DNA of 53,944 bases from IMG/VR virus record IMGVR_UViG_3300032144_000013, positions 1 through 53,944 of that record, one strand, 5' to 3'. Below the pieces are notes generated by a model. The model had not been told where the DNA came from. It made no database searches and saw only the letters and a program-made list of their open reading frames with translations. Each line of letters opens with the position of its first letter. The first letter of the stretch is position 1. This DNA comes from a virus (taxonomy: Duplodnaviria > Caudoviricetes). A program made the translations under genes and the position numbers. Positions 5,243-53,908 of the stretch are shown here, piece by piece.

Positions 5243-5566
5243 TTAGCGGAGTTTGTTGAACAGTTGCAGAACGGCCGCGTTCACGTTGTCCACGGATGCG
5301 TTGGTCGTCAGCTTCCCGAGCGCGCTGTTGATCTCCGCAAACGCCGATTTGCAGTCCGCACCGGTGTTCTCGAATCCGAAGTGCGCTGATGCACCCGCGA
5401 AGTGCGCGTTCTGCGAACCATCACCGTCGATCATCAGGTTCATGGCGTCGCGTTCGTCGATCAGCTCCTCAAGACCACGCTCCAGATTGTCGAGCGCCCT
5501 GCGCAACTTGAACCCGTGCGGCGTGCCCGCGTCGAATGCGTAGTGATTGTCGGCCATGTCATTCAA
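5243..5566 (-). CDS. Hypothetical helical protein
   Basis: Abuts both neighbours in the same operon. Confidence 0.6.
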   Translation of the reverse strand: MNDMADNHYAFDAGTPHGFKLRRALDNLERGLEELIDERDAMNLMIDGDGSQNAHFAGASAHFGFENTGADCKSAFAEINSALGKLTTNASVDNVNAAVLQLFNKLR

Positions 5567-7118
5567 TCTCCTGAACTGAACCGGTTAGCCAGTACCCGCA
5601 ACGCTTGGCCCGTACAGTCCACGCTCCAACCTCAATCTCGCCGCTCAGATCACACGGCGTGTAGACGAACAGCAGCGTCTGTGCGACACCGGGAATCTCA
5701 GTCTCCGTAGCGTACACCCGGTTCGCCGTCGCGTCGTTCAGCGGGCACGCGAGAACGCGAGTCGTGCCTTCCCGCCAGTAGCGGTTGATCGTCGGGTGAT
5801 CTGCGATGCGTTTCAGTTGCCGCAGCAACGCCAGTTCGTAGTCTTCCACCGTGGCGTTCGCGACGTCGGTCCGGCCGATGGACAGCAGGTACTCCGCAAC
5901 GTTCGGCTTGGGGGCCACGAGTATCTGAGTCGGCAGCGTGTTCGCGTTGTCCCACCAGACCAATCGCACTTCCTTGCCCGGTGACTGCATCCGCCACGCC
6001 ATCGCGGTGAAGAATCCCGCACACGACTCAGGATCGACGATGGCGTGCTGTTGGGACTGATGTCCGGCGATGACAGCAGGCGGAACGATATCGACGCTCA
6101 ACTCGCGCCACGCTGATGTCTGCCAGTCTGCCTGATAGCTCGCCAGTGCCTGCTCGTGTTGTGGGCTGGTGAGCAAAGAATCCGAGTACCACCCGAGGTA
6201 CAGAGCGATGCTGGCCGTCGTGTTCTGGTGATTCTCGTCGAAGCTGCCGTAGCCGACTGTTCGAAGTTTCCCACGCCAGCCGTCCGTCAGTTCCGCATCG
6301 AATGCCGCATACAGGGCGTGGTACAGGGCATTCTCTGCCGCGTGAAACTCGGATTCACAGTCCTCCGGTTTCCTGTTCCGACGCTCATCCACCCAATCGG
6401 CCAGTTGCAGCGACTTGCTCTCCAGGTTGGCACGCGGCAACCATGCCAGCGTCACGACCGTCACCCGCGTACCATCCGGCAACTTGACCTTCTCGGACTT
6501 CTCAGAGCACAGTTCCTTGAACTTGACCCGCTCGCCTTCGTTGTTCTCGCGAAGGATGATCTCGGTGGGACTCGGCACAATCTCCTGCAGCCGACGCATC
6601 CACGCTCCTGTCGCCCACAACCGGCCGCATTCCTGCCACTTGCACACTGGCCCCACGGGGTTCGGCTCGGGCGTCTGATCCAGAGTGCCATCAATCTTCC
6701 GCCGCACGCACAACACCGACTCCCGCCAGTTCTCTTCCGTCAGCACCATGCGCGGGATCGTGGCATCGATCTCGCCGGTGATGTTGTTCATCCGCAGCAC
6801 GATCGGCCCGTTGTTCATCCGCGACAACAGCGGAGCATTGCCGTTCAGGATGCCGATCTGCTTCGGAACCCCGTCAACGATCGCCCCGCCTTCCCGCAGT
6901 GCCGCGTTAATCATGCGGATGGACGGCTCGACCGGATAACCGGCGTCAATCTGGGCCTGCTGCCACTGGTAGCCGTGGCCGTCGATGTGCCAGATGGAGA
7001 ACAGCGGGCCAGCAGACGACTGGACTTCATCTCCAGCCGGCCAGCCGCCTCCGCCCAGAAAAGGACCGTCGGCGCTTGCCGTGGAGACCAGCAGCAGGGT
7101 GGCGAGGATGATTTTCAT
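5559..7118 (-). CDS. Secreted protein of unknown function (519 aa)
   Basis: True start MKIILATLLLVSTASA-DG is a Sec signal peptide with an ASA cleavage site; ATGA overlap with the upstream ORF. Confidence 0.7.
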   Translation of the reverse strand: MKIILATLLLVSTASADGPFLGGGGWPAGDEVQSSAGPLFSIWHIDGHGYQWQQAQIDAGYPVEPSIRMINAALREGGAIVDGVPKQIGILNGNAPLLSRMNNGPIVLRMNNITGEIDATIPRMVLTEENWRESVLCVRRKIDGTLDQTPEPNPVGPVCKWQECGRLWATGAWMRRLQEIVPSPTEIILRENNEGERVKFKELCSEKSEKVKLPDGTRVTVVTLAWLPRANLESKSLQLADWVDERRNRKPEDCESEFHAAENALYHALYAAFDAELTDGWRGKLRTVGYGSFDENHQNTTASIALYLGWYSDSLLTSPQHEQALASYQADWQTSAWRELSVDIVPPAVIAGHQSQQHAIVDPESCAGFFTAMAWRMQSPGKEVRLVWWDNANTLPTQILVAPKPNVAEYLLSIGRTDVANATVEDYELALLRQLKRIADHPTINRYWREGTTRVLACPLNDATANRVYATETEIPGVAQTLLFVYTPCDLSGEIEVGAWTVRAKRCGYWLTGSVQEIE

Positions 7119-41570: not shown

Positions 41571-42218
41571 TCACGCCTCCACTGGTTGCTGTGCACGACC
41601 GGGAACCAATGCCCCGAGGTCAATCCGTCGGAAGTGCCCACACCGCACGTTGCCATGCGCCACGATGCGACACCCCGCGTCCTTCGCGCGACGGCAGAAG
41701 TCCACGTCGTCGCTGGTTGACTCGAAATGCCCGTCTTCGTTGAGCCAGCTCGGCCACTGGAACCACGCACCCGGATTGCCGACTCGCCCGAACACGTCAC
41801 GTTGAATCAGCATGCAGCCCGTCGCCACACGGTCCGCCTCAATCACCCCGTCGAACCACTGGCGCACCCAGTCGCCGTCCACTCGCACGGCAATCGATGG
41901 AACGATCCGCCGCCCTTGTTCAGCGAGGAACACGTAGCAGCCACCAGCAATGTCTGCGTCGGCTTCAACCAGGCGCGTAATCGTGTCCGGTGGAATGCAC
42001 ACGTCGTCATCAATGAACAGCAGGTGCGTGCAGTCGCTCGCCAGGAACGTCGCCACGACACGATTGCGTCCGATTGCCACGCCGTACCGCTCGATGCACC
42101 GCGTGTAGCGACACTCGATGCCTTGCGCCTCAGCCTGCTGCATCGCGGACGTAACGGCGTCCTTGACCTCGTCCTGCAAGGCCGTGTCGCGTGTCAGGAT
42201 GGCACACAGGACATTCAC
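41571..42218 (-). CDS. Glycosyltransferase (GT-A fold, GT2-like)
   Basis: GRNRVV...HLLFIDDD...ATGCMLIQRDVF...SDDVDFC...CGH. Confidence 0.85.
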   Translation of the reverse strand: MNVLCAILTRDTALQDEVKDAVTSAMQQAEAQGIECRYTRCIERYGVAIGRNRVVATFLASDCTHLLFIDDDVCIPPDTITRLVEADADIAGGCYVFLAEQGRRIVPSIAVRVDGDWVRQWFDGVIEADRVATGCMLIQRDVFGRVGNPGAWFQWPSWLNEDGHFESTSDDVDFCRRAKDAGCRIVAHGNVRCGHFRRIDLGALVPGRAQQPVEA

Positions 42219-42586
42219 GCCGTCTGCTCCATCGCCCGGACCTTCACGCCCGTTGGGAATCCACCGTCGTCAACAATTGGCATTGCCGGTCCATCGCAAC
42301 TGACTTCCCGGTTCCCGAAACTGTGCAGCGTCATCTTCATGTCACTCGTGATCGCCAGCGGTTTCGTGCCCCAGTTGAATTCGACCACCCAGCCGACCGA
42401 CCCTTGCACCTGCTCCGACTGAACGACCTCTCGGGTGCTCATCGCCCGGCAGAACGCGAAGCTCGTCTTGAAGAACTCCACGTAACTGGGGATCTGCTCG
42501 TTGGCTGCGTCCTGCGTGTAAACCGGCTTCTTTACAGTCACCTTGTGCCGCCGCTTGCCGATGTCGTCGCACTTGCACGAGGTCAC
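42215..42586 (-). CDS. Head closure protein (SPP1 gp16-like)
   Basis: IGKRRHKVTV...STREVVQSEQ; position after the connector. Confidence 0.75.
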   Translation of the reverse strand: MTSCKCDDIGKRRHKVTVKKPVYTQDAANEQIPSYVEFFKTSFAFCRAMSTREVVQSEQVQGSVGWVVEFNWGTKPLAITSDMKMTLHSFGNREVSCDGPAMPIVDDGGFPTGVKVRAMEQTA

Positions 42587-43164
42587 TTCGGCACCCGGAA
42601 CGAATAGTTGTCCAACAGCGGCTTAACACCGAACGGGATCTCGCTCATGTCGCAACCGCCCGCCGTGCGGTGCTGATACCAGTGCGCCACCAGCATCAAC
42701 AGCGCCGTCTTGATCGCCTTCGGAACCGCACTCGCCGCCCCGTAACCAGCCGTGAATGTCACAGTCACGTCGTTGCGGAACCCGCGTACCGCCGGCCAGG
42801 ACTGGTTGTAGGCCGGATAGATCAGACCCGGTTTCGCAACCACGTCCGCAATCCACTGAGTCGTCTCCGTCAGCGTCTGAGTGACGCCGCTGTTGTCCAC
42901 ATACGAAATCGCAGTCACGTCGAGCACGGGATTCGGATGCAGCGGGATCTGCGTGCAGTGGAAGTCGTGCATCCGCATCTTCCACGTCGCCGTCACGAAC
43001 TGAGACCAGCAGTAGTCCTGCCCCCACAGCGTCGCCGCGTGAATCAGTCCGTCCACGACTGCGGTCTCTTCCGGAGAATCGATCCGGCAGTGCGCAGCCA
43101 CTTCCGTCCACGAAATCGGCGTTTCGTTGGGTGCGACGGTCTGTTCGTAAGTGGCACGCGACAA
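42583..43164 (-). CDS. Head-tail connector (gp6-like)
   Basis: AHCRID...VTFTAGYG...VPKAIKTALLMLVAHWYQHR. Confidence 0.88.
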   Translation of the reverse strand: MSRATYEQTVAPNETPISWTEVAAHCRIDSPEETAVVDGLIHAATLWGQDYCWSQFVTATWKMRMHDFHCTQIPLHPNPVLDVTAISYVDNSGVTQTLTETTQWIADVVAKPGLIYPAYNQSWPAVRGFRNDVTVTFTAGYGAASAVPKAIKTALLMLVAHWYQHRTAGGCDMSEIPFGVKPLLDNYSFRVPK

Positions 43165-43167
43165 TGG

Positions 43168-44358
43168 CTAAATCTCCTGCTTCTTGCGGGTGCAGTGACC
43201 CGCCCGCGCGTGCTTGTTCCACCACTCCGTGATGTGGCGATGGACCGGCTTCATTTCTTCGTCGTATTCCGACACGACCAACTCCAGGTGTCCAATGCGC
43301 ACATCAGGCGCGACATAGACGGAATGACCGGCAGCCTTCCACTTGTCCCAGAACGTGATGTCGTCGTCCCGTCGGCCCTCGCCCCACTCCCCGTTCGCGT
43401 CAGGGACGGCGTGCAGCCACGGTTTCGGCATGTCCGCGAGACATTTCACCCGCAGCAGCGTCAGGCCGAAGTGCGCGGTATCAACACGCACCGGATCCCA
43501 CGTCACTTCCGCCTCGCGCTTGCCGGCGATCCCCATGAGCGGGGTTTCCGCGCCGCGACGCATTTGCAGAGCTGCTATTGCGTCGATATCTTGGCGCTGC
43601 GCGAGGATTCTCAGAAGCCGCTCGACATGACACGGGAGAATCATCGAGTCGTAGTCGAGCGTCAGCAGCCAATCGATCCCCTCTGCCAGTGCCCGCTGGA
43701 AACCAGCCTGAATGTTCTGGCCCCAGAAGCATCCGGTATGCGTCTCGATCGGGATGCCGTGTGCGTGCAGGGCTTCGGTGATTGACAGCCATGCGTCGTT
43801 CCATCCGACGCGAGGCAGACCCATCGTCGCGCGCACCTTGACGTCCACAGACGTCGCTGCAGGACGCTCCCCCTTGTCGGCCTCCAGGTTCAGGCTGATG
43901 GCGTCGAACGACGCGAGGTCCGTGTTCTGACTGGACCAGTGCCGGACGTCGTGGAAGCCGAATGTCTCCAAGTAGCCACGCAGGCGATTCTCGTCCCACG
44001 CCGACTTGTGGAAATCGTCGGCGTCAGTCTGGCCCCCCATCAGGTAGTACGCCCACTTCGGATCGGACTCTGTCAGGAATGCCACCTTCCGCACGTCAGG
44101 AACGCTGATCCGCAGCCTCCCACCGGGACGAAGCACACGCCGCCACTCTTCCAGCGCCTTCAGCACCTCCGCAAACGACAGGTGCTCCAGCATGTGGACG
44201 CAGCGGATTTCCTCGACGCTGTTGTCCGCATAAGCGAGCGGGTACGCTTCCGTTCCGAGCTTGCGATCGATCGCCGTGAAACCGGGAATGACCGTATCGC
44301 CCGCACCGATGTTGAGGCGGATCAGTCCGTCGGCAGGAGGTGAAAGCGTGTCATGCAT
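43168..44358 (-). CDS. SAM-dependent methyltransferase fused to a GT-A glycosyltransferase
   Basis: RLNIGAG...HMLEH...RVLRPGG N-terminus; LTLDYD...HFGLTLLR...DDDITFW...IGH C-terminus. Confidence 0.82.
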   Translation of the reverse strand: MHDTLSPPADGLIRLNIGAGDTVIPGFTAIDRKLGTEAYPLAYADNSVEEIRCVHMLEHLSFAEVLKALEEWRRVLRPGGRLRISVPDVRKVAFLTESDPKWAYYLMGGQTDADDFHKSAWDENRLRGYLETFGFHDVRHWSSQNTDLASFDAISLNLEADKGERPAATSVDVKVRATMGLPRVGWNDAWLSITEALHAHGIPIETHTGCFWGQNIQAGFQRALAEGIDWLLTLDYDSMILPCHVERLLRILAQRQDIDAIAALQMRRGAETPLMGIAGKREAEVTWDPVRVDTAHFGLTLLRVKCLADMPKPWLHAVPDANGEWGEGRRDDDITFWDKWKAAGHSVYVAPDVRIGHLELVVSEYDEEMKPVHRHITEWWNKHARAGHCTRKKQEI

Positions 44359-44464
44359 GAGAGTTGATCCGCATAGTGAGCCGCGCACGGATGTAAGCGG
44401 GACGACAATTGATCCCACGGGTGCGGCTCAATGCTCCGTGGTCGCCTGCCGCCCGCATTCCGCA

Positions 44465-44902
44465 TCAGAGCACTACGACCGTGTCGTTCGTCGAACCCCG
44501 CAGAGCTGCGGTTCCCGGCAACGACTCTTCCTGACGTGACAGGATGGCAATCGCCGCCGCCGTCACGTGGTCGTTCGTGGTGGTCTCGGAGGTGATCGCG
44601 AGCTTGAGGTACCGCTTGCGAGCCTTCGTGTTGACGTGGAAGTTGGCTGCATGCGCCACCACCAGCGGCTCCGCCGTCAGCGTGCAGGAACTCGACCACG
44701 TCGCGAACGAACTGGTCGTGTCGCCTTCACTGACGACGATCGTCGGGCCAATGCCGTTCGTGTTGACCTCGATTCCCAGCGGAATCGTGATCGTCGCGAA
44801 GTCGCTGCCGAGCGTGTCGAGCGTGGCCGATCGCGTGGCACCGGCTGACTGCGTCGCAGCGGCCAGCATGACGGTCAGTTTTTGGCTGAAAGCGGGAATC
44901 AT
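44465..44902 (-). CDS. Putative capsid decoration protein
   Basis: Beta-rich 145 aa shortly after the capsid gene (LDTLG...RKRYLKL). Confidence 0.6.
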   Translation of the reverse strand: MIPAFSQKLTVMLAAATQSAGATRSATLDTLGSDFATITIPLGIEVNTNGIGPTIVVSEGDTTSSFATWSSSCTLTAEPLVVAHAANFHVNTKARKRYLKLAITSETTTNDHVTAAAIAILSRQEESLPGTAALRGSTNDTVVVL

Positions 44903-45132
44903 TACTCAATCTCCTCGATAGTTTCGGAGCGGCGCTGACGACGCTTCGGGGCTTCTGTGGACTCAGCACGCGGCTCGCTGATGCCGGCCGCGACAAGTGG
45001 CCTCGCAGTGACGAACTCCGCGACTCCACGCTGCACGAGTGCATCGTGGACCCCGTAGCCCATCGTTTCGTCTGTCGATCCGATGGGCTTTCGGTACGGA
45101 TTCGCTCGCAGGAATCGAATCGTGGTTTGCAT
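44902..45132 (-). CDS. Small head-associated hypothetical protein
   Basis: TAATG-coupled to the capsid gene; DALVQRGVAE. Confidence 0.6.
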   Translation of the reverse strand: MQTTIRFLRANPYRKPIGSTDETMGYGVHDALVQRGVAEFVTARPLVAAGISEPRAESTEAPKRRQRRSETIEEIE

Positions 45133-46634
45133 TACGTGCCTGTTGCCAAGCCGACAATCGGGCCGACCGCAGACGCAGTACCGCAGCCATGCACGTTGAC
45201 GTCGAATCGTTCGGTGCCGCGCACCGCAATCTGGTTGCGCTCGAACACCGACTGACCGCCAATGGTGGCGTGCTCGCTGAAACTGATGCTGGTCTGCTGG
45301 CGGTCGCCGAACAGGGCGCCAAGGGCGAAGTTGCCCAGCACCGCCGTCACACCAGTCGTCGCCGTTGCGTTCGGGAATACCTGGCTGAACTCGACCGGGT
45401 AGCCCAGGAACAGCGGTCGCGGCCGTCGGTCTCCGTTGGACACCTCCATCGCGGTCACGCCGCCGGACGCCAGTTCCAGCTTCTGCATGACTTCGGCGAA
45501 ATAGGTCTTGTGACAGACCCACACCGCGCCGTTGTCAGCGTAGACCGGCAACTTGCCGACAACCGCGTGGAAGTCCGCGAGCACCTGCGCGGACCAGGTG
45601 TTCGACGTGCCCTGAATCTTCAGGCCCGCCGAATCCGTGCCCGCGCCGTCGATGCTGGTCAACAGGTTGCGAACACCCTGAATGCCGCCATAGGTGCTGG
45701 TCCCGTCACCGTTGAAACCGCACTGGTCTTCCTTCTCGGAAAACGCATAGGCGATCTCTCCGGCCAGCGCGTCACCGATGTTGATAACGGCATCGGCGCT
45801 AAGCTGGTTCGTCATGCGGGCCAGCACCATCAGGTCCTTCGCCGACAACTGCACGTCGTCCCAAGTCATGTTCGACTCGGTTCCAGCGTCGCTTTCGTTG
45901 ACGAAATACGCCGTCAGACCAGCGGACCTGCGCGGCTCGTGCTTGATGTCGCTCGTCATCGCCACGCTGCCGAACAGCCGGCGCACAAGGCCGTACTGCT
46001 CGCGCAGGTCGATGAGGTCGCGGCTGAACTCGTCGGGAACGAGGTAGTGCCCGCCGGTCGTCACGTCGGTCTCACCGTGCGCGACGTTCACCGGGTTCAT
46101 GTAGTTCTCAACGAACTGCTTGCTGTAGGCGAAGTTGTAGCGCCCCGGCAGGTCTTGCGAGACACGCGCCAGAACCCACTGCCCGAAGCGATAGGCCCGG
46201 TGCTCAGCGTCCAGACCATCGCGCGGCTTGCCGTTCGTGTCGCGGAAGTTCTGAAGGGCACCGGACCGCCGCACGTTGCGGGGGATCTTGAACCGGATCG
46301 TCGGTTCGCCGTCCTGGTTCTCGGTCTCGATTGGCAGGCCATTGCGAGCTGAGGGAGCCGGGGTTCCGGCGGTCGGCTGCGTGCGTCGGGCCTGCACCTT
46401 CGGGGTCATCGCCTCCGCGCGGTCGGCGCGGGCGTTCTTCATGGCGATGTCTTCCTCCAACTGCTCCTTCTGCTTCTGGAGCTCCTCGAACAGCGCCTTG
46501 AGATTGGCGTACTGCGTGCGCTGTTCATCGCTGAACGCGCCGTCGTTTTCGAGATTCGCCTGACGCTCGATCTCCGCCTGGTCGGCGTCGATCTTCTTCA
46601 TGCGTGCGATGAGTTCAGCGAGCTGCTTGTCCAT
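45132..46634 (-). CDS. Major capsid protein, HK97 fold with delta domain
   Basis: Coiled-coil N-terminus, GGHYLVPDEF, FNGDGT, LFLGYPV, GNF, FERNQIAVRGTERFD. Confidence 0.95.
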   Translation of the reverse strand: MDKQLAELIARMKKIDADQAEIERQANLENDGAFSDEQRTQYANLKALFEELQKQKEQLEEDIAMKNARADRAEAMTPKVQARRTQPTAGTPAPSARNGLPIETENQDGEPTIRFKIPRNVRRSGALQNFRDTNGKPRDGLDAEHRAYRFGQWVLARVSQDLPGRYNFAYSKQFVENYMNPVNVAHGETDVTTGGHYLVPDEFSRDLIDLREQYGLVRRLFGSVAMTSDIKHEPRRSAGLTAYFVNESDAGTESNMTWDDVQLSAKDLMVLARMTNQLSADAVINIGDALAGEIAYAFSEKEDQCGFNGDGTSTYGGIQGVRNLLTSIDGAGTDSAGLKIQGTSNTWSAQVLADFHAVVGKLPVYADNGAVWVCHKTYFAEVMQKLELASGGVTAMEVSNGDRRPRPLFLGYPVEFSQVFPNATATTGVTAVLGNFALGALFGDRQQTSISFSEHATIGGQSVFERNQIAVRGTERFDVNVHGCGTASAVGPIVGLATGT

Positions 46635-46850: not shown

Positions 46851-47000
46851 TCACTTTGCAATACCCGTTGTCGAGATTTTTTGAACTGTGGTTGGAGAGA
46901 CCCCGTACCGCCGCGCCGTGTCGCGCACGGAGGAATGCACCAGTGCCCGGAGGATCCGCTCGCGGTCTCGCTCGTCAATCGCGCGGCCCGGTGTCGCCAT
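46851..47000 (-). CDS. Small helix-turn-helix protein
   Basis: MATPGRAIDERDRERI...SVRDTARRYGVSPTTVQK. Confidence 0.6.
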   Translation of the reverse strand: MATPGRAIDERDRERILRALVHSSVRDTARRYGVSPTTVQKISTTGIAK

Positions 47001-47394
47001 CTTCGATCTCCAGTTCTGCCGCCACGGCAACCGCGACTTCCAGTTCCGGTGCGACTTCCTCACAAACGACTTCGGCGACAGGCACCGCACCGTCGAATCC
47101 CGGAACGATCTTGTCGGCTGTCAGCGCCAGCGCCTGAGTGCCCAGCCAGTCGTTGACGTGCCCAACCGCGTTCCGCTCGCGTTCGGAGAATGAATCGCCA
47201 CGACTGAACCGAAGCCGCAGCGCCACGTCGTCGGCCGCTGTATCTCCCATTGCCGCGCGAACGTATTCCACAACGCCAGCGTGCCACTCTTCGGCCACTG
47301 AGAAGTCGCCGAATGATGCCTGACCGCCTCCGCAGGCCGCGTCACCATCGCGTGCCAGCGCCAGCAACCCGTCGCGCACTTCCTGAACAGTCAT
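46975..47394 (-). CDS. Hypothetical acidic protein
   Basis: ATGA-coupled to the epimerase. Confidence 0.55.
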   Translation of the reverse strand: MTVQEVRDGLLALARDGDAACGGGQASFGDFSVAEEWHAGVVEYVRAAMGDTAADDVALRLRFSRGDSFSERERNAVGHVNDWLGTQALALTADKIVPGFDGAVPVAEVVCEEVAPELEVAVAVAAELEIEDGDTGPRD

Positions 47395-48446
47395 GCCACC
47401 TCCCTTTGCTGTTGTGCTTCGACGATCTCCGCGACCGTCTGTTCCAATGAATACTCCTGCCGCCAGTTCGGATAAGCCGCCTCAAACTTCCGCGTGTCCG
47501 TGATCCACCATTTGTGGTCGCCCATGCGCGGCTCTGCGACGTGCTCCAGAGTCATCTTCCGACCCGACAGCCGCTCCGCCATCGCAATCGCCTCCAGCAC
47601 GCTACAGGACCGCTCAGGACCGCCGCCGATGTTGTAGACCGCTCCCGGCGTCGGGTTGTTCACGTACTCCACGAACGCCCGCACGAGGTCGCTGGCGTGG
47701 ATGTTGTCGCGCACCTGCTTCCCGCCGTAGCCGATGACCTTGTACTGCGTCCCGTTCACGACGCACTTGCACAGGTACGACAGGAACCCGTGTTGCTCGA
47801 CGCCCGCGTGTCCCGGTCCCGTCAGGCACCCGCCCCGGAAACAGACGGTGTTCATGCCGAAGTAGCGGCCGTACTCCTGCACGTAGACGTCTGCGGCGAG
47901 TTTTGAGCAGCCGAATAGGGAATGGGTGCACTGGTCGATAGGTGTCAACTCGTCGAAGCCATGTGGAAACGATGGCACGTCAAATCGCGTCTCGTGGACA
48001 TGCATCGCTAACTGGTTCGGCCAGTCGCCGTAGACCTTGTTCGTGGAGCAGTGGACGAACGCTGCATGAGGGCACCATGCGCGCGTCATTTCCAGCATGT
48101 TCAGCGTGCCAGTCGCGTTTACGTGGAAGTCTGCGGTTGGGGCCGTGGCCGCCCAGTCATGCGAAGGTTGCGCCGCCGTGTGAATCACAGCCTCTATTTG
48201 GTCTCCATATCCCGCGAACATGTGCGAGTAACGGTCCGGTTCCCTTATGTCCGCTTGCACATGCCAATATCCGGGGCACAATCCGTGAAGGACTGCGGAG
48301 GTGTTGTCCGTGCACCCGCCCTCCCCGAAGAATTGGCGGCGACAGTTGTTGTCAATCCCGACAACGCGATACCCCAGCGCCGCGAACTGCCGCACCGCTT
48401 CCGATCCCACAAGCCCGGCGCTGCCGGTGACGATGACGGTTTTCAT
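47391..48446 (-). CDS. NAD-dependent sugar epimerase/dehydratase (CDP-paratose 2-epimerase-like)
   Basis: VTGSAGLVG, HTAAQPSHD, STNKVYGD, FGCSK, GKQVRDNIH, YNIGGG. Confidence 0.9.
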   Translation of the reverse strand: MKTVIVTGSAGLVGSEAVRQFAALGYRVVGIDNNCRRQFFGEGGCTDNTSAVLHGLCPGYWHVQADIREPDRYSHMFAGYGDQIEAVIHTAAQPSHDWAATAPTADFHVNATGTLNMLEMTRAWCPHAAFVHCSTNKVYGDWPNQLAMHVHETRFDVPSFPHGFDELTPIDQCTHSLFGCSKLAADVYVQEYGRYFGMNTVCFRGGCLTGPGHAGVEQHGFLSYLCKCVVNGTQYKVIGYGGKQVRDNIHASDLVRAFVEYVNNPTPGAVYNIGGGPERSCSVLEAIAMAERLSGRKMTLEHVAEPRMGDHKWWITDTRKFEAAYPNWRQEYSLEQTVAEIVEAQQQREVA

Positions 48447-48661
48447 GCTCGCTGTGCTCCGCAACCACGACAACGACCGTTCTCTGGTTCGCCACTGCTG
48501 CCGCAGAACAAGCAATCTCCGGACGGCTGCACCGGTGCGTTTCTGTCGTTCAGAATCACCACGCGACACCCGGTGCCGCTGTACGTGGCTTCCCATTCCC
48601 TCCGCAGTCTGTCGCGTGCTTCTCGCGACATTGGCGGCAGCGTCGGAACCGGCATCCCCAT
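48443..48661 (-). CDS. Microprotein with a portal-like segment and a Zn ribbon
   Basis: MSREARDRLRREWEATYSG...VVILND then CLFCG...CRGCGA; ATGA-coupled to the epimerase. Confidence 0.65.
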   Translation of the reverse strand: MGMPVPTLPPMSREARDRLRREWEATYSGTGCRVVILNDRNAPVQPSGDCLFCGSSGEPENGRCRGCGAQRA

Positions 48662-48700
48662 CGCTGTTCCCTCAAACCGTGCCTTCTTTAACTTCGGCTG

Positions 48701-48916
48701 TCATGTCGCCTCGCCTGGAAGTCCGATTTCCAACGAGTTGTCGTCGAACCGTTGGCTCCACTCGCCGCACCACTCATGCGGTTCCGTGCGCGCCCAACGA
48801 TCGTGATCCAGATCCGGGTTCGGTGGATGAGGGGCGTTTCTCTTGCAATAACCCCATTGGCATGTGTCAGATCCATGCCTCTCCCACCACCTACAAACCT
48901 TGCACGTTCCGTTCAC
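48701..48916 (-). CDS. Small Cys-rich phage protein
   Basis: CKVCRWW...GYCKRNAP...WCGEW; start approximate. Confidence 0.6.
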   Translation of the reverse strand: MNGTCKVCRWWERHGSDTCQWGYCKRNAPHPPNPDLDHDRWARTEPHEWCGEWSQRFDDNSLEIGLPGEAT

Positions 48917-48926
48917 CACAAAAACC

Positions 48927-49667
48927 TCACTCCGCAGGCGTGAACATCTCCCGACGCGAACGGATACGCTCCGCACGCGCTGCCTCACTTCGGCACAACC
49001 GCTGCTCCGCTTCCTTCCACAACGCAGTCACCGGCTGAGTCATCGACGCCTTCGCCGATGTTCGGCCGGTCACAACCTCGTCCACGAACTTCGCCGACAG
49101 CGCTTCCTTCGCCGTGAAAATCGTCCCATCAACCTTGCCCTTCATCCATGCCTTGATTGCGTCCATCGACTTGCCGGTTTTCGACTTGTAGGTCTTCGCA
49201 ATCGCCTCATCGATCTTGCCAAGCCAGTCCCGCGCCTCTTCCATGATGTCCACGTTCCCCACCGCAATGAGACTGGCGCGGTGGATGAACAGGTTCGCGT
49301 TCTCGTACATCTGCACCGGTGCCCCGGCCATTGCGATAATCGACGCTGCAGATCCTGCCATGCCCTCGATGATGGTCGTAATCGCCCCATCGTGAGCCAA
49401 CAGGGCGTTGTGGATCGTGATTCCGTCGTACGCCAGCCCGCCAGGCGAGTTGATCCGCACGTTGACGGCTCGCCCCTTGTTCTCGCGCAGGAACTGGCCC
49501 ACGCTCCGCGCGTCCATCGCCTCGTACGGGTTTCCGACTTCGCCGTACAGAACGATCTCGGCAGGATCATCGCCCTTCGCATTCCGCACGCCGACGCGGA
49601 ACGATGACGAACTGGCCGACTCCTGAGCCTTCGCGGACAGGAGAACCTCAATGAGCTGTGGCATCAC
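48927..49667 (-). CDS. ClpP-type head maturation protease
   Basis: INSPGG...IHNAL...GMAGSAASIIAMAG...FIH. Confidence 0.92.
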   Translation of the reverse strand: MMPQLIEVLLSAKAQESASSSSFRVGVRNAKGDDPAEIVLYGEVGNPYEAMDARSVGQFLRENKGRAVNVRINSPGGLAYDGITIHNALLAHDGAITTIIEGMAGSAASIIAMAGAPVQMYENANLFIHRASLIAVGNVDIMEEARDWLGKIDEAIAKTYKSKTGKSMDAIKAWMKGKVDGTIFTAKEALSAKFVDEVVTGRTSAKASMTQPVTALWKEAEQRLCRSEAARAERIRSRREMFTPAE

Positions 49668-51694
49668 GTTCCTTTCTGCTGTTGACGTTCCTCGAACAGC
49701 CGCACGCCGCGCTCAACCATGTCGTTCGCCAGATTCGTCGAACGCTCGGTCCACTGGCTCTTGCGGTAGATGTGCACGAACTCGCGCAACTTGTCGTGGT
49801 AGTTGTCCGCCGCATGACCGTCCAATGACTTCAGATCACGCACGGAATCGCCTGAATACCGCTGCGAGGCCCATTCCAGGTCCAGAATGATGCCACACGC
49901 CTCGGATTCAGGCTGATATTCGCCCAGATTGGTGACGAAATAGCGGTTAAACCGGGCGTAGAACTCGGCTCGCGACTGCACCCATTCGGCAGGCTTCTCG
50001 GTCGCCTTGTCGAGCCACTTCCATTCCCAGTCAGAGAGTTTGTCGATCTCGCGCTTCAGCGCCTTCGCAAACACGCGCCGCGTGACTTCTCGCTCGGCTG
50101 CAACTGCAGCGTCCGCTTTCGCCTGTTCCGCCTCGAAAATCGCCCTTTCAGCCGCCAAACGCTCGATTTCCGCTGTATCACGGGCGTTTTCAGCATCTGC
50201 GCGGTGTCGCTGAAGTATCTCCTCCAGCGCATGCCCGTAAGTCGCAACGTCCTTCTCGCGCTGCTGTCGATCGAACTCCGCCCGCGCCGTCTCGCGCGCC
50301 TCTGCCGTCGCGTCGCGCAACAGCACCTTGTCCATGAACTCCCGCTGCTGATTGCGGATTTCCACCAGTGCAGCGGCTGTTTTCTCGTCTGGAGCACTGT
50401 TTTGCTGCGGAGTCGGCGGTGGAGCGGTCAACTTGTCGATCTGCGCCTGCGCCATCTCGCCGATCTTGTCCAGCGGCATGAGGTTGTTCGCCGGCACGAA
50501 GTATTGGTCGCCGCCCGGGATCGGGTTCATGTCCTCCATAGCGCGGATGTCGTTCGGCGATGCGGCGCCCATGTTGAACAGCACCTGATAGAACACGCCG
50601 CGCGCCGCAGAATCGCCCCGCAACAGCCCCATGACGTTGAATTTGAACCGATATCGCTTCCGCTCCTCTTCCGTCAGGAGCTGGCGGTACATCGCCTTCT
50701 CCCATCGGACGATCCACGGCAGCATCGTGTGCACGACGAACGAAATCGCCTCAGACTCGATGTTCGCCCACGTCGCCCGGCTCAGGTCGCCGATCATGTG
50801 CGGCGGGACTTTGTAGAGCCGCGCGATCTCGTTGACGCTGAACTGCCGCGCCTCCAGCAACTGCGCCGCCTCCGGCGCGAACGTCAGGTCCACCGGTTCC
50901 ATGCCGTCTTCGAGGATCAGCGTCTTGTAGTGGTTGTGTGCGCCGCCGTAGACCCGCTGCCACTGGTCCCGCAGCCGTTCCGCTGCCTCTTTTCCGACAG
51001 TCTTCGGGTGCTTCAGCGCCAGATTCGACACCGCTCCATTGCGGAAGAACGCTCCTGCATGCCGATCGGTCGCAATCGCGATTCCCAACGACTCAGCGCC
51101 CGCTACGGGGATCGGAACGCCAGTGATCCCGTTGCGCGACAGCACTCCCGTCACGTTGAGCATGTCGCTGGCCGGGATCGCCGACTCAGTCCCGTCGTCG
51201 TTCTTCGCGTAGTAGACGATCTCGCCCGGCTGTCCGACCTGGATATGCCGCCATTGCGACGGATTCACCGGGTTCCGCTCGATGTTGCACACCGGAATCC
51301 GGCTCGTGTGAATCGGCCACAGTGCAACGATCGACCCCGAGGTGTCGCGCTGAATCTCCGCGTAACCGTTCCCCCAGTTCACCTGCCGGTCCGACTGCGT
51401 ATCGAGCCACGAAACGATGTCCTGCTCAGGATTCGGGATGTCGTGCACAACCGGATAGAGCGGGTGATCGGTCGCTTTCCGCGTTGTCCTGTCGTCCACC
51501 TGCTCCAGCAGCATTAACGGCAGGCTCGCCAGTCCTTCTGTGATGACCCGAGTCGCCGCCATCGCTGCCGAGTAGGTCAGCGCCGTCTCCTGCGACACGC
51601 GCACGCCCGCCGACGTCGGAGCCGTGCCCAGCATCGGCCACCAGCTCGACTCAGACTTCATGTCCCAATTCGCCGTCGGCGCAAAGAACTTCAC
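49664..51694 (-). CDS. HK97-family portal protein with a long C-terminal extension
   Basis: WGNGYAEI, FFRNGA, QLLEARQFSVNEIARLYKVPPHMIG, SPNDIRAMEDMNPIPGGD. Confidence 0.95.
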   Translation of the reverse strand: MKFFAPTANWDMKSESSWWPMLGTAPTSAGVRVSQETALTYSAAMAATRVITEGLASLPLMLLEQVDDRTTRKATDHPLYPVVHDIPNPEQDIVSWLDTQSDRQVNWGNGYAEIQRDTSGSIVALWPIHTSRIPVCNIERNPVNPSQWRHIQVGQPGEIVYYAKNDDGTESAIPASDMLNVTGVLSRNGITGVPIPVAGAESLGIAIATDRHAGAFFRNGAVSNLALKHPKTVGKEAAERLRDQWQRVYGGAHNHYKTLILEDGMEPVDLTFAPEAAQLLEARQFSVNEIARLYKVPPHMIGDLSRATWANIESEAISFVVHTMLPWIVRWEKAMYRQLLTEEERKRYRFKFNVMGLLRGDSAARGVFYQVLFNMGAASPNDIRAMEDMNPIPGGDQYFVPANNLMPLDKIGEMAQAQIDKLTAPPPTPQQNSAPDEKTAAALVEIRNQQREFMDKVLLRDATAEARETARAEFDRQQREKDVATYGHALEEILQRHRADAENARDTAEIERLAAERAIFEAEQAKADAAVAAEREVTRRVFAKALKREIDKLSDWEWKWLDKATEKPAEWVQSRAEFYARFNRYFVTNLGEYQPESEACGIILDLEWASQRYSGDSVRDLKSLDGHAADNYHDKLREFVHIYRKSQWTERSTNLANDMVERGVRLFEERQQQKGT

Positions 51695-51870
51695 GATTGC
51701 GGCCCCTTCGGTTTACGAAACAGACTCACCAGCGGGATCAGAGCCGCAAACGCACCAAGCGACAGCAATCCCGCCGGCGGATAAATCCACGCACACCCCG
51801 CCGACACGGACACCGCACCGGCCGCATACAGGCAATCCTCGGCGTCGAACATCTCACTGAGCCGCTTCAT
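51691..51870 (-). CDS. Small membrane protein between terminase and portal (59 aa, not in ORF track)
   Basis: MKRLSEMFDAEDCLYAAGAVSVSAGCAWIYPPAGLLSLG; coupled on both sides. Confidence 0.7.
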   Translation of the reverse strand: MKRLSEMFDAEDCLYAAGAVSVSAGCAWIYPPAGLLSLGAFAALIPLVSLFRKPKGPQS

Positions 51871-53483
51871 CAGCCAATCTCCAGAAAACCGCGATTCTCT
51901 CGGTCGTAGACGGATGCGGATGGCTCCGAAACATCCGACGCGCTCACCGCCATAATCAACGCCACCACACCGTCAATCTTCTCCAGAGACCTCTCCCGCG
52001 CCGGCCGCGTCCGCATGAACGCATCCGTCACACCAACCGCGTTCTGCACGTTCCAGTTGAGCACCGGGTGCCCGTTGTGCTTGATGTCCTGATTTCCCAC
52101 CATCGCCTGCAGCTTCTTGGTCGGTGACGCCATCGCGAACGCCTGCTGCGAATGCTTCAGCATCGTCAGCCCATAGTTCGACAGACGCTCGTACAGCCCC
52201 GACGCCTGCGCCCGGTCGAACGCGATGGTTCGGATGTCGTACATCGCCGCCAGGGATTCGAGCTTTTCTCCAATCGCCCGCTGCGAAATGAAGTCCCCGT
52301 CCGTCGGCTCGATGAACCCGCCGTCGAGCCACGTCTGGTAGGCAATGCCGTCCTGCGCCTGCCGCTTCGCCACGTTCTCAATCGGGCACCAGAACCACGC
52401 CAACGTCCGCTTGGACTCAGGGAAGAACAGCACGAACGCTGAAAAGTCCTTCTCCGTCGCCAAGTCCAGCCCGCCGAAGCATTCTTGCCCCAACAGGTCA
52501 TCCGGGTCGTACGCCTCATGGCAGGCATCCCAGAGCGGCATCGGAATCAGCCGGTTCGCGTGCGCCGTCTGCATGCACAGGTGCAGCCGCTTGAATCCGA
52601 TCTCCTCAGTCGGGTTGACCTTCGCCTTCTCGCACTCCCGCGCCAGATAGTTCTCGTCAACGGAGATCCCGTAGTTCGGGTTCGCCGCCTTCCACGTCTC
52701 CGGGTCAGTCCAGTCGGCGTCCTTCGGAGCCTCGTAAATCACAGGCAGGAATCCGGCATCGCATGCGCCGCCGTCCCGCACCTGATGCGCGTACTTGTAC
52801 TTCGTGTTGCAGACGCTTTCCCGGATGTAATCGGCCGTCGTGATGTAGACGATCAGCGGCTGCAGACCCTTCACCGCTGTACCAGTCGTCAGCGCTTCCA
52901 CGAGGTTCGCGTTCCGGTGCGCGTGCAGCTCGTCGATGATGGCAAAACACGGCCGCGAACCATGCTGAGCGCCGGCATCAGACGACGTGCTGCGGTAGAA
53001 CCCGCCCATGTCGTCCACTCGCTCGATGACCTTCGACGACGGAACAATCCGCGTCAGTTCGGCCATCTCCTCGTTCGCCTTAATCATCCGGCAGGCGTCC
53101 TTGAAGATGAGCGCCGCCTGCTCCCGAGTCGAAGCCGCAGAGAAGTATTGCCCGCCCGGTGTCGGCCGCATGAACATCTCCAGCAACAGCAGCCCCGCAG
53201 CACAACTGGTCTTGCCGTTTTTTCGCGGCAAATAGATGAACGCCTCCCGGTATCGCCGCCGCCCGGCCGCCGTCTCCCAGCCGTAGAGGTTCCCGACGAT
53301 CGCCTGCTGCCACGGCTGCAACTCGAACGGTTGCCCAGCGCGCTCGCCGTCCGGGAACGTCAGCATGTCGCGGAAGAACCCGACGGCATCCTCTGCCCGC
53401 GCAGCGTCGAACTCCCACCCGTCGGCGTCGCGCCACGGGTCATAGCCGGGAATCAGAGTTCGGCAGGCTTCTTCGACGGTCAT
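51870..53483 (-). CDS. terL: Terminase large subunit
   Basis: LQPWQ, PRKNGKT (Walker A), AIIDELH (Walker B), GGLDLA, KIDGVVA; ATGA start at 53483. Confidence 0.96.
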   Translation of the reverse strand: MTVEEACRTLIPGYDPWRDADGWEFDAARAEDAVGFFRDMLTFPDGERAGQPFELQPWQQAIVGNLYGWETAAGRRRYREAFIYLPRKNGKTSCAAGLLLLEMFMRPTPGGQYFSAASTREQAALIFKDACRMIKANEEMAELTRIVPSSKVIERVDDMGGFYRSTSSDAGAQHGSRPCFAIIDELHAHRNANLVEALTTGTAVKGLQPLIVYITTADYIRESVCNTKYKYAHQVRDGGACDAGFLPVIYEAPKDADWTDPETWKAANPNYGISVDENYLARECEKAKVNPTEEIGFKRLHLCMQTAHANRLIPMPLWDACHEAYDPDDLLGQECFGGLDLATEKDFSAFVLFFPESKRTLAWFWCPIENVAKRQAQDGIAYQTWLDGGFIEPTDGDFISQRAIGEKLESLAAMYDIRTIAFDRAQASGLYERLSNYGLTMLKHSQQAFAMASPTKKLQAMVGNQDIKHNGHPVLNWNVQNAVGVTDAFMRTRPARERSLEKIDGVVALIMAVSASDVSEPSASVYDRENRGFLEIG

Positions 53484-53908
53484 GCTCGCTTGATGTACCC
53501 CTTCCGGTTCTTCGGCAGGCCTGGCTCTGTCCGCACCGAGGTCTTGCTTGCCGGCGTCAGGCCGAACTCCCGAGCCACCTTCATGAAGTCGTCGAACGCT
53601 TCCTTGCACTGCTTCCACAGCGGGTCGTCGATGTCCCGCAACCGGCACTCTGTGACCAGCGTCTGGTACCGCTGCCATCGCTCACACAGCGCCGCAAGAC
53701 TCTCCTGCCATGCCGGCGACAGGATCCCCTGATTCCGTAGCCGGTCCACCTGCCGGTCCCACAACGCGGAGCCGTACTCGCCGAGATTGGCAGGCTTGAC
53801 CGGATCGCCAGGCACGATTGCAACCTCGCCCTTCCGCTCGGACGTGTGATGCGAACCCTGCAGCCGCAAGACCTCCAGCGGTCTCGGTGGTCGCCCTTTA
53901 CCGGCCAT
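53480..53908 (-). CDS. terS: Terminase small subunit (P27 family)
   Basis: GRPPRP...REFGLTPASK. Confidence 0.9.
   Translation of the reverse strand: MAGKGRPPRPLEVLRLQGSHHTSERKGEVAIVPGDPVKPANLGEYGSALWDRQVDRLRNQGILSPAWQESLAALCERWQRYQTLVTECRLRDIDDPLWKQCKEAFDDFMKVAREFGLTPASKTSVRTEPGLPKNRKGYIKRA

Follow-up and report, generated by a model that had tools for sequence, protein, structure and literature searches.

MicroProteins (miPs), small proteins that derive from an interaction domain and regulate the protein from which they came, are known from both plants and animals. To our knowledge the concept has not been described for phage portals, and the literature search behind this statement was aimed at other questions. 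Here, we analyze micro72, a protein of 72 residues from a soil phage, which resembles the microProteins in being small and in originating from that portion of a larger oligomer-forming protein, the portal, that lies at its subunit contacts. Small phage ORFs usually defy explanation; micro72 is an orphan whose origin can be traced, and it thus leads to a concrete hypothesis of binding.

The portal topology on which our mapping of stem and clip depends is that given in the available parts of PMC10541612 and PMC12847820. As far as the accessible portions of the published accounts go, all four portal subdomains contribute to the contacts between subunits (PMC12847820), the clip serves first as the docking site of the large terminase and then as that of the adaptor (PMC10359639, PMC10541612), and the clip strands of adjacent subunits pair, with the C-terminus of the adaptor adding a strand to the clip strands of two subunits (PMC10541612); in RcGTA, the clip helix contacts the adaptor (PMC7296036). 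The stem–clip region is also reported, in the extracts available, as contacted by EcAvs4 and SpbK. The origin of micro72 is thus a surface at which terminase and adaptor dock and with which two immune systems reportedly make contact.

Among the Avs sensors, Avs1-3 are described in the available extracts as sensing the large terminase, and Avs4 and Avs11 as sensing the portal (bioRxiv 10.64898/2026.08.25.746987; PMC13581612); they recognise folds through extended interfaces (PMC13581612). Two phage proteins that counter Avs have been named, ORF55, a DNA ligase, and ORF83, a probable AMP-binding Smf-like protein (bioRxiv 10.1101/2025.06.06.658234). These are accessory phage genes, as is micro72, and the countering of a STAND sensor would be a further shared property only if micro72 acts as a decoy. 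In the accessible part of their description both are enzymes and not fragments of the sensed protein, which sets micro72 apart from them. [quoted passage not shown]

Genomic Setting of micro72

The window, by which we mean the entire stretch of 53,944 bases that was analyzed, is an IMG/VR virus record rated by CheckV as 100% complete, and nearly all the genes of this phage are on the minus strand. In order of descending coordinates, its head module contains the small terminase (53480-53908), the large terminase, TerL (51870-53678), a 59-aa ORF (51691-51870), the HK97-family portal P0002 (49664-51694, minus strand; PF04860, E 4.6e-87; TIGR01537, E 3.4e-65), which has the PDB relatives 9lbn and 8cez, and a ClpP-type prohead protease (48927-49667, minus strand; PF00574, E 9e-22). 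There follow a Cys/Trp-rich small ORF (48701-48919, minus strand), of about 72 aa when read from a GTG just past the protease stop, and micro72 itself (48443-48661, minus strand; protein P0001, 72 aa plus stop), whose translation agrees with that given in the preliminary description. Beyond these are an NAD-dependent sugar epimerase/dehydratase (47391-48446, minus strand; PF01370, E 2e-38; phrog_540, E 8.8e-39), a 139-aa ORF (46975-47394), a small HTH protein (46851-47090, minus strand), the major capsid protein with its N-terminal coiled-coil part (45132-46634), a Ser/Thr-rich ORF of 145 aa that belongs to phrog_5707 (44465-44902), a methyltransferase–glycosyltransferase fusion (43168-44418, minus strand), the adaptor (42583-43164), a head completion protein (42215-42586) and a family-2 glycosyltransferase (41571-42218, minus strand). 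The protease and the epimerase are the upstream and downstream borders of a variable slot, within which micro72 is located. Given this position in the late head operon, micro72 should be made along with the portal, the protease and the capsid protein.

A Single Homologue and a Conserved Zinc Ribbon

A phmmer search of 1.84 billion representative proteins revealed one homologue of micro72, P0003, a protein of 79 aa (E 1.3e-11; 35/68 identities, 51%) that has the same C-terminus and keeps the four cysteines. The preliminary description had allowed that micro72 might be a decayed fragment with no intact homologue; P0003 is such a homologue. At E up to 0.001 the same search gave seven proteins, the query, P0003 and five long proteins, and the latter were set aside as composition matches (the three that were examined are repeat proteins). 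P0003 has the same source as P0023, a portal 63% identical to that of our phage, and each of the two is found on an NCBI contig of 12,211 bases. Judged from this shared source and length, both are apparently encoded on one contig, and a micro72-type gene would therefore occur in at least two related phages.

The family remains extremely small. Word-index searches found only P0001 and P0003 as members; there was no match in viral contigs with the single protein as query, in genome contigs or in two metagenome scans; and among the GenBank phages there was no match for P0003. When viral contigs were searched with the two-member alignment, two loci were recovered, and both are portal genes.

The C-terminal part of micro72 (residues 49-68; 48458-48517, minus strand) has the sequence motif of a C4 zinc ribbon, CxxC-x10-CxxC. 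The paired CxxC motifs that had been noticed earlier are formed by C50, C53, C64 and C67, which are invariant in P0001 and P0003, and over residues 48-71 the two proteins are identical at 20 of 24 positions. No curated Pfam zinc-ribbon family was matched by micro72 (E up to 0.1) or by P0003 (E up to 10), in searches where the HMMER filters drop most weak matches. With small zinc-ribbon proteins micro72 shares a C-terminal pair of CxxCG knuckles that are separated by 10 residues. Its look-alikes by features and structure in the ESM Atlas fall in Zn_Ribbon_1 and CPxCG-type clusters, which we take as leads only, and none of the Atlas neighbors listed carries a portal family.

Portal Ancestry of the N-Terminal Half

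The likeness to the portal had been noticed by eye at about 50910-51010, and alignment agrees with this, locating it in the portal segment 50882-51028 (minus strand; residues 223-271), as found by both BLASTP and hhalign. Each single comparison gives a modest signal. In BLASTP, residues 11-44 of micro72 match residues 233-268 of the phage's own portal with 13/36 identities (E 7e-5, a value that comes from a single comparison and is marginal alone), and in a tblastn search of the whole window with the portal as query and the portal gene masked, micro72 ranks first with an E of only 0.09. The various profile collections all point in the same direction: PF04860 is the sole Pfam match both of micro72 (E 0.052; profile positions 170-200 of 321) and of P0003 (E 0.064; 166-201), the sole NCBIfam match of micro72 is TIGR01537 (portal_HK97), and three of its four weak PHROG matches are portal families. 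When the record was searched in six frames with PF04860, only the portal gene and the micro72 spot were found. Among GenBank phages, P0001 matches 34 records at E 0.5-0.6, and all 20 of the matches listed fall inside annotated portal genes of Mycobacterium or Arthrobacter phages. P0003, for its part, aligns without gaps to the portal P0023 over 46 residues (E 3e-5).

The preliminary description had made its case depend on a significant profile match to portals, and the comparison of the two-member family with the portals gives one. An alignment of P0001 and P0003 was compared by hhalign with a profile in which 64 of the 120 listed portal relatives were aligned; the probability was 95.5% (P 1.3e-8; score 57.2 over 49 columns), with residues 2-48 of micro72 (48518-48658, minus strand) set against portal residues 223-271. 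The highest score among 60 column shuffles was 22.2, and the reversed query scored 12.5. An HMM of the two members finds this same segment in 118 of the clade's 121 portals, and 76 of these matches have at least 15 bits. Its median score is 18.5-18.8 bits where a portal shares 52% identity or more with that of the phage, and 7.7 bits where the identity is 38-51%. Of the six portal positions that are most conserved in the segment, both members have retained five, L241, R242, W245, G251 and L261, and both have lost the sixth, N254, which is nearly invariant in portals; apart from these, the residues identical to the portal form a different set in P0001 than in P0003. Such a combination of shared conserved positions and differing portal-identical sets is the pattern of common descent and not of convergence. 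At the level of sequence, these comparisons establish that the first 48 residues of micro72 descend from a portal gene of this phage clade, and the simplest reading would be a partial duplication of that gene inside the clade.

This ancestry does not make micro72 a portal. Its scores are far below the thresholds for full membership (13.2 bits against a cut-off of 39.1 for PF04860; 10.2 against 112.05 for TIGR01537). When set against the HK97-family portals, residues 2-48 correspond to where the wing ends, to stem helix 1 and to the beginning of the clip, and span 49 of some 320 core positions; since micro72 has no wing, no second stem helix, no tunnel loop and no crown, it cannot form a channel. 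The two halves of the protein have moreover diverged at very different rates. In the portal-like half P0001 and P0003 are identical at 15 of 40 positions, and the same segment of their portals has kept 32 of 49; the corresponding value for the zinc ribbon is the 20 of 24 given above. The faster divergence of the portal-like half is compatible either with an arms race or with a relic under relaxed constraint.

In the portal as modelled by AlphaFold2 (AF2; mean pLDDT 88.2), this region contains a strand (222-228), a helix (235-249), a less confident coil (250-265) and a strand (266-271), followed by a short helix (274-277), a helix (279-294), a loop and a long helix (312-339). When this predicted secondary structure is read against the published topology, the copied piece would run from the last strand of the wing through stem helix 1 to the first strand of the clip. 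Taken together, the hhalign result, the portal model and that topology indicate that micro72 is derived from a portal region that takes part in subunit contacts. The model of micro72 itself, built from a two-row alignment, is of low confidence (mean pLDDT 51.8); in it, helix 13-26 and strand 33-37 coincide with their portal counterparts, and the first hairpin of the zinc ribbon (strand 49-53) starts at the place of the second clip strand. A complex prediction for micro72 with portal residues 30-400 gave a best score of 0.28, against a mark of 0.32, which speaks neither for binding nor against it.

A Genuine but Rare Gene in a Variable Slot

A Shine-Dalgarno-like GAGGG (48669-48673, minus strand) lies 7 nt before the ATG of micro72, a gap of 39 nt separates the gene from what lies upstream, and its stop overlaps the start of the epimerase as ATGA (48443-48446, minus strand). 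The translational coupling that was proposed earlier is consequently credible toward the epimerase, where the stop/start overlap argues for it, but not on the upstream side, where the gap and the ribosome-binding motif argue against it. A promoter scan, confined to sigma-70-like sites, detected none, and the sole terminator-like site lies elsewhere (47196-47222). A longer epimerase, starting at 48596 and reading through micro72, was considered and rejected, since the Rossmann motif starts only with the ATG at 48446, and the N-terminus encoded from there, MKTVIVTGSAG, matches PF01370 from profile position 1.

The coding statistics are mixed. The synonymous-codon (CAI-like) index of micro72 is 0.617, compared with 0.658 +/- 0.056 for 84 gene-like ORFs and 0.521 +/- 0.042 off-frame. 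Its GC3 of 0.63 is undercut by only 5 of the 84 genes and is still in the range of small genes. Whole-codon log-odds reveal no preferred frame, and the base composition is flat across the codon positions (0.62/0.63/0.63); both features follow from an odd amino-acid make-up. The strongest argument that micro72 is a real gene is the intact homologue at 51% identity, and the gene-like use of synonymous codons, the Shine-Dalgarno motif and the ATGA overlap add to it. A decaying portal pseudogene was also rejected as an explanation, since the neighboring frames hold no further pieces of portal and an intact homologue is known. These results show that micro72 is a real, though very rare, accessory gene and not a decayed fragment.

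The accessory character is evident from the slot between the prohead protease and the sugar epimerase. In the closest relative among viral contigs (L007; portal 63% identical), the protease stop at 5308 and the epimerase start at 5324 are 15 nt apart, and the slot is without the three small ORFs that are specific to the window. In a more distant relative (L010; portal 51% identical) the same slot contains an unrelated ORF of 205 aa (5626-6243, plus strand). Neither micro72 nor the Cys/Trp-rich ORF nor the 139-aa ORF has a relative in any of 85 related loci. The absence from these loci and the contents of the slot in the two relatives identify micro72 as an accessory gene at a variable position, and such a patchy presence argues against an essential role in assembly.

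The other slot-specific ORF, the Cys/Trp-rich one, has a CxxC and a WCGEW motif and a coding signal as weak as that of micro72. It has no match in Pfam, PHROGs, NCBIfam or PADLOC, and beyond these only a match at E = 1 in one Roseobacter phage. In one contig of the wastewater run X3 (depth 20.1), 48441 is joined to 49098, which skips the slot and the tail of the protease; with flanks of only 33 letters and a threshold of 80% likeness, we see in this junction a weak hint of a relative without the insert.

Possible Functions of micro72

Overall, we view micro72 as a small protein exapted from the interaction region of a larger one. As to what it does, we tentatively favor, with a probability of about 0.4, a zinc-stabilized competitive mimic of the portal's stem–clip element, the portal itself being the likeliest partner. 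The protein would be a miniature of this element, held in shape by the zinc ribbon, and it would compete by binding something that is normally packed against the element. Since the clip docks other proteins, its strands pair between neighbors and the subunits are in contact throughout, a soluble, zinc-stabilized copy of stem helix 1 with a clip-like hairpin could compete for each of these partners. The likeliest partner would be a portal subunit, at the inter-subunit contacts of stem and clip; a terminase, the head–tail adaptor or a host portal sensor would be alternative ones. The portal is favored because the residues kept in both members are its most conserved packing positions, and because in micro72 these residues lack their usual partner in the same chain, the second stem helix. 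The complexes of micro72 with portal subunits would be either non-productive or regulatory, much as in the logic of plant microProteins, and assembly of the portal ring might thereby be tuned, or poisoned, in the phage itself or in a co-infecting relative. Should micro72 indeed bind the portal, it would provide an instance, in a phage, of a protein that is regulated by a fragment of itself.

Several observations count against a working mimic: the poor conservation of the portal-like half in comparison with both the portals and the ribbon, the loss of N254 in both members, the low-end GC3 and the fact that only two members are known. Furthermore, a subunit poison that a phage makes from its own head operon would have to be controlled in some way. 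The difference between the two halves has led us to consider that the portal part is left from the birth of the gene, and that micro72 is a small zinc-ribbon protein whose function has nothing to do with the portal and might lie, for instance, in binding nucleic acid or in regulating the neighboring sugar-modification genes. The overlap of its stop with the epimerase start and the small zinc-finger and zinc-ribbon proteins among its Atlas look-alikes, as far as such leads go, agree with this possibility. Yet after a long divergence both members still match the portal profile and retain all but one of the six best-conserved portal positions in the segment, and the epimerase of L007 and L010 does without micro72; a mere relic at the N-terminus is thus possible but on the whole rather unlikely. 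A recombination leftover that is open by chance would also account for the flat composition, the missing frame preference and the low GC3 (the lack of coverage of 48449-48642 by contigs of runs X1-X3 says nothing either way). It was disfavored already by the full-length homologue with the same end and the four cysteines, by the gene-like synonymous codons and by the absence of other portal pieces nearby, and we attach very little credence to it.

The remaining two possibilities retain the mimicry and change the partner. An anti-defense decoy would occupy a portal sensor of the Avs4, Avs11 or SpbK type and so block or divert its activation. The region mimicked is the very one that EcAvs4 and SpbK are reported to contact, micro72 is sporadic and sits in a variable slot, its operon position suggests that it is co-expressed with the portal, and the faster evolution of the portal-like half relative to the portal would fit an arms race. 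On the other hand, with interfaces as extended as those described in the available part of PMC13581612, a piece of 48 residues could be a weak binder, or could even activate the sensor on its own; the anti-Avs proteins that bioRxiv 10.1101/2025.06.06.658234 names, in its accessible portion, are enzymes and not target fragments; and no host genome, hence no sensor, is known for this phage. PADLOC gave no match for micro72. We consider the decoy doubtful; were it true, it would be the first counter-defense made from a fragment of the sensed structural protein, and a new class of such measures. Alternatively, micro72 might bind the large terminase or the adaptor, and in this way time packaging or tail joining, or hinder a rival phage. 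The clip is their docking site, and the C-terminus of the adaptor adds a strand to the clip strands of two subunits, but only the first clip strand has been copied, the adaptor-contacting clip helix described for RcGTA (in the part of PMC7296036 available) is absent, and relatives L007 and L010 dispense with micro72 altogether; such a competitor for clip-binding proteins strikes us as improbable. The portal-directed mimic is our working proposal.

Other Features of the Phage Genome

Residues 437-676 of the portal (49664-50386, minus strand) form an all-helical C-terminal extension of about 240 residues, with long helices, that AF2 predicts with high confidence. Among the relatives the length of the portal ranges from 398 to 1127 aa, and this extension varies widely in length. 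In all three related phages compared, a small HTH protein is encoded just upstream of the capsid gene (46851-47090, minus strand, in the window; 6418-6570 in L007; 7499-7645 in L010), and from its position it may be a regulator of the late genes. Between the epimerase and the capsid gene, L010 has a sigma-70 region-4-like ORF of 77 aa together with an HTH ORF.

Further ORFs of the phage (28124-28414, 26253-26636, 22507-22887, 33846-34583, 9022-9972 and 32716-33849) encode functions that include a CsrA homologue, an AhpC/TSA redoxin, a papain-family protease, a LexA-type DNA-binding piece and an S24 peptidase piece as separate ORFs, and, on the plus strand, a protein with a prepilin N-methylation motif. 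According to its source label, one of the portal relatives derives from a Planctomycetaceae MAG, and in combination with this set of genes it gives a weak hint of a planctomycete host.

Finally, the head–neck module holds three sugar-modifying genes, the SDR epimerase/dehydratase, the methyltransferase–glycosyltransferase fusion and the family-2 glycosyltransferase, and both L007 and L010 conserve the epimerase/dehydratase and the methyltransferase–glycosyltransferase. The presence of the three genes in this module suggests that the virion is glycosylated, and the 145-aa ORF that follows the capsid gene could be a target of the modification.
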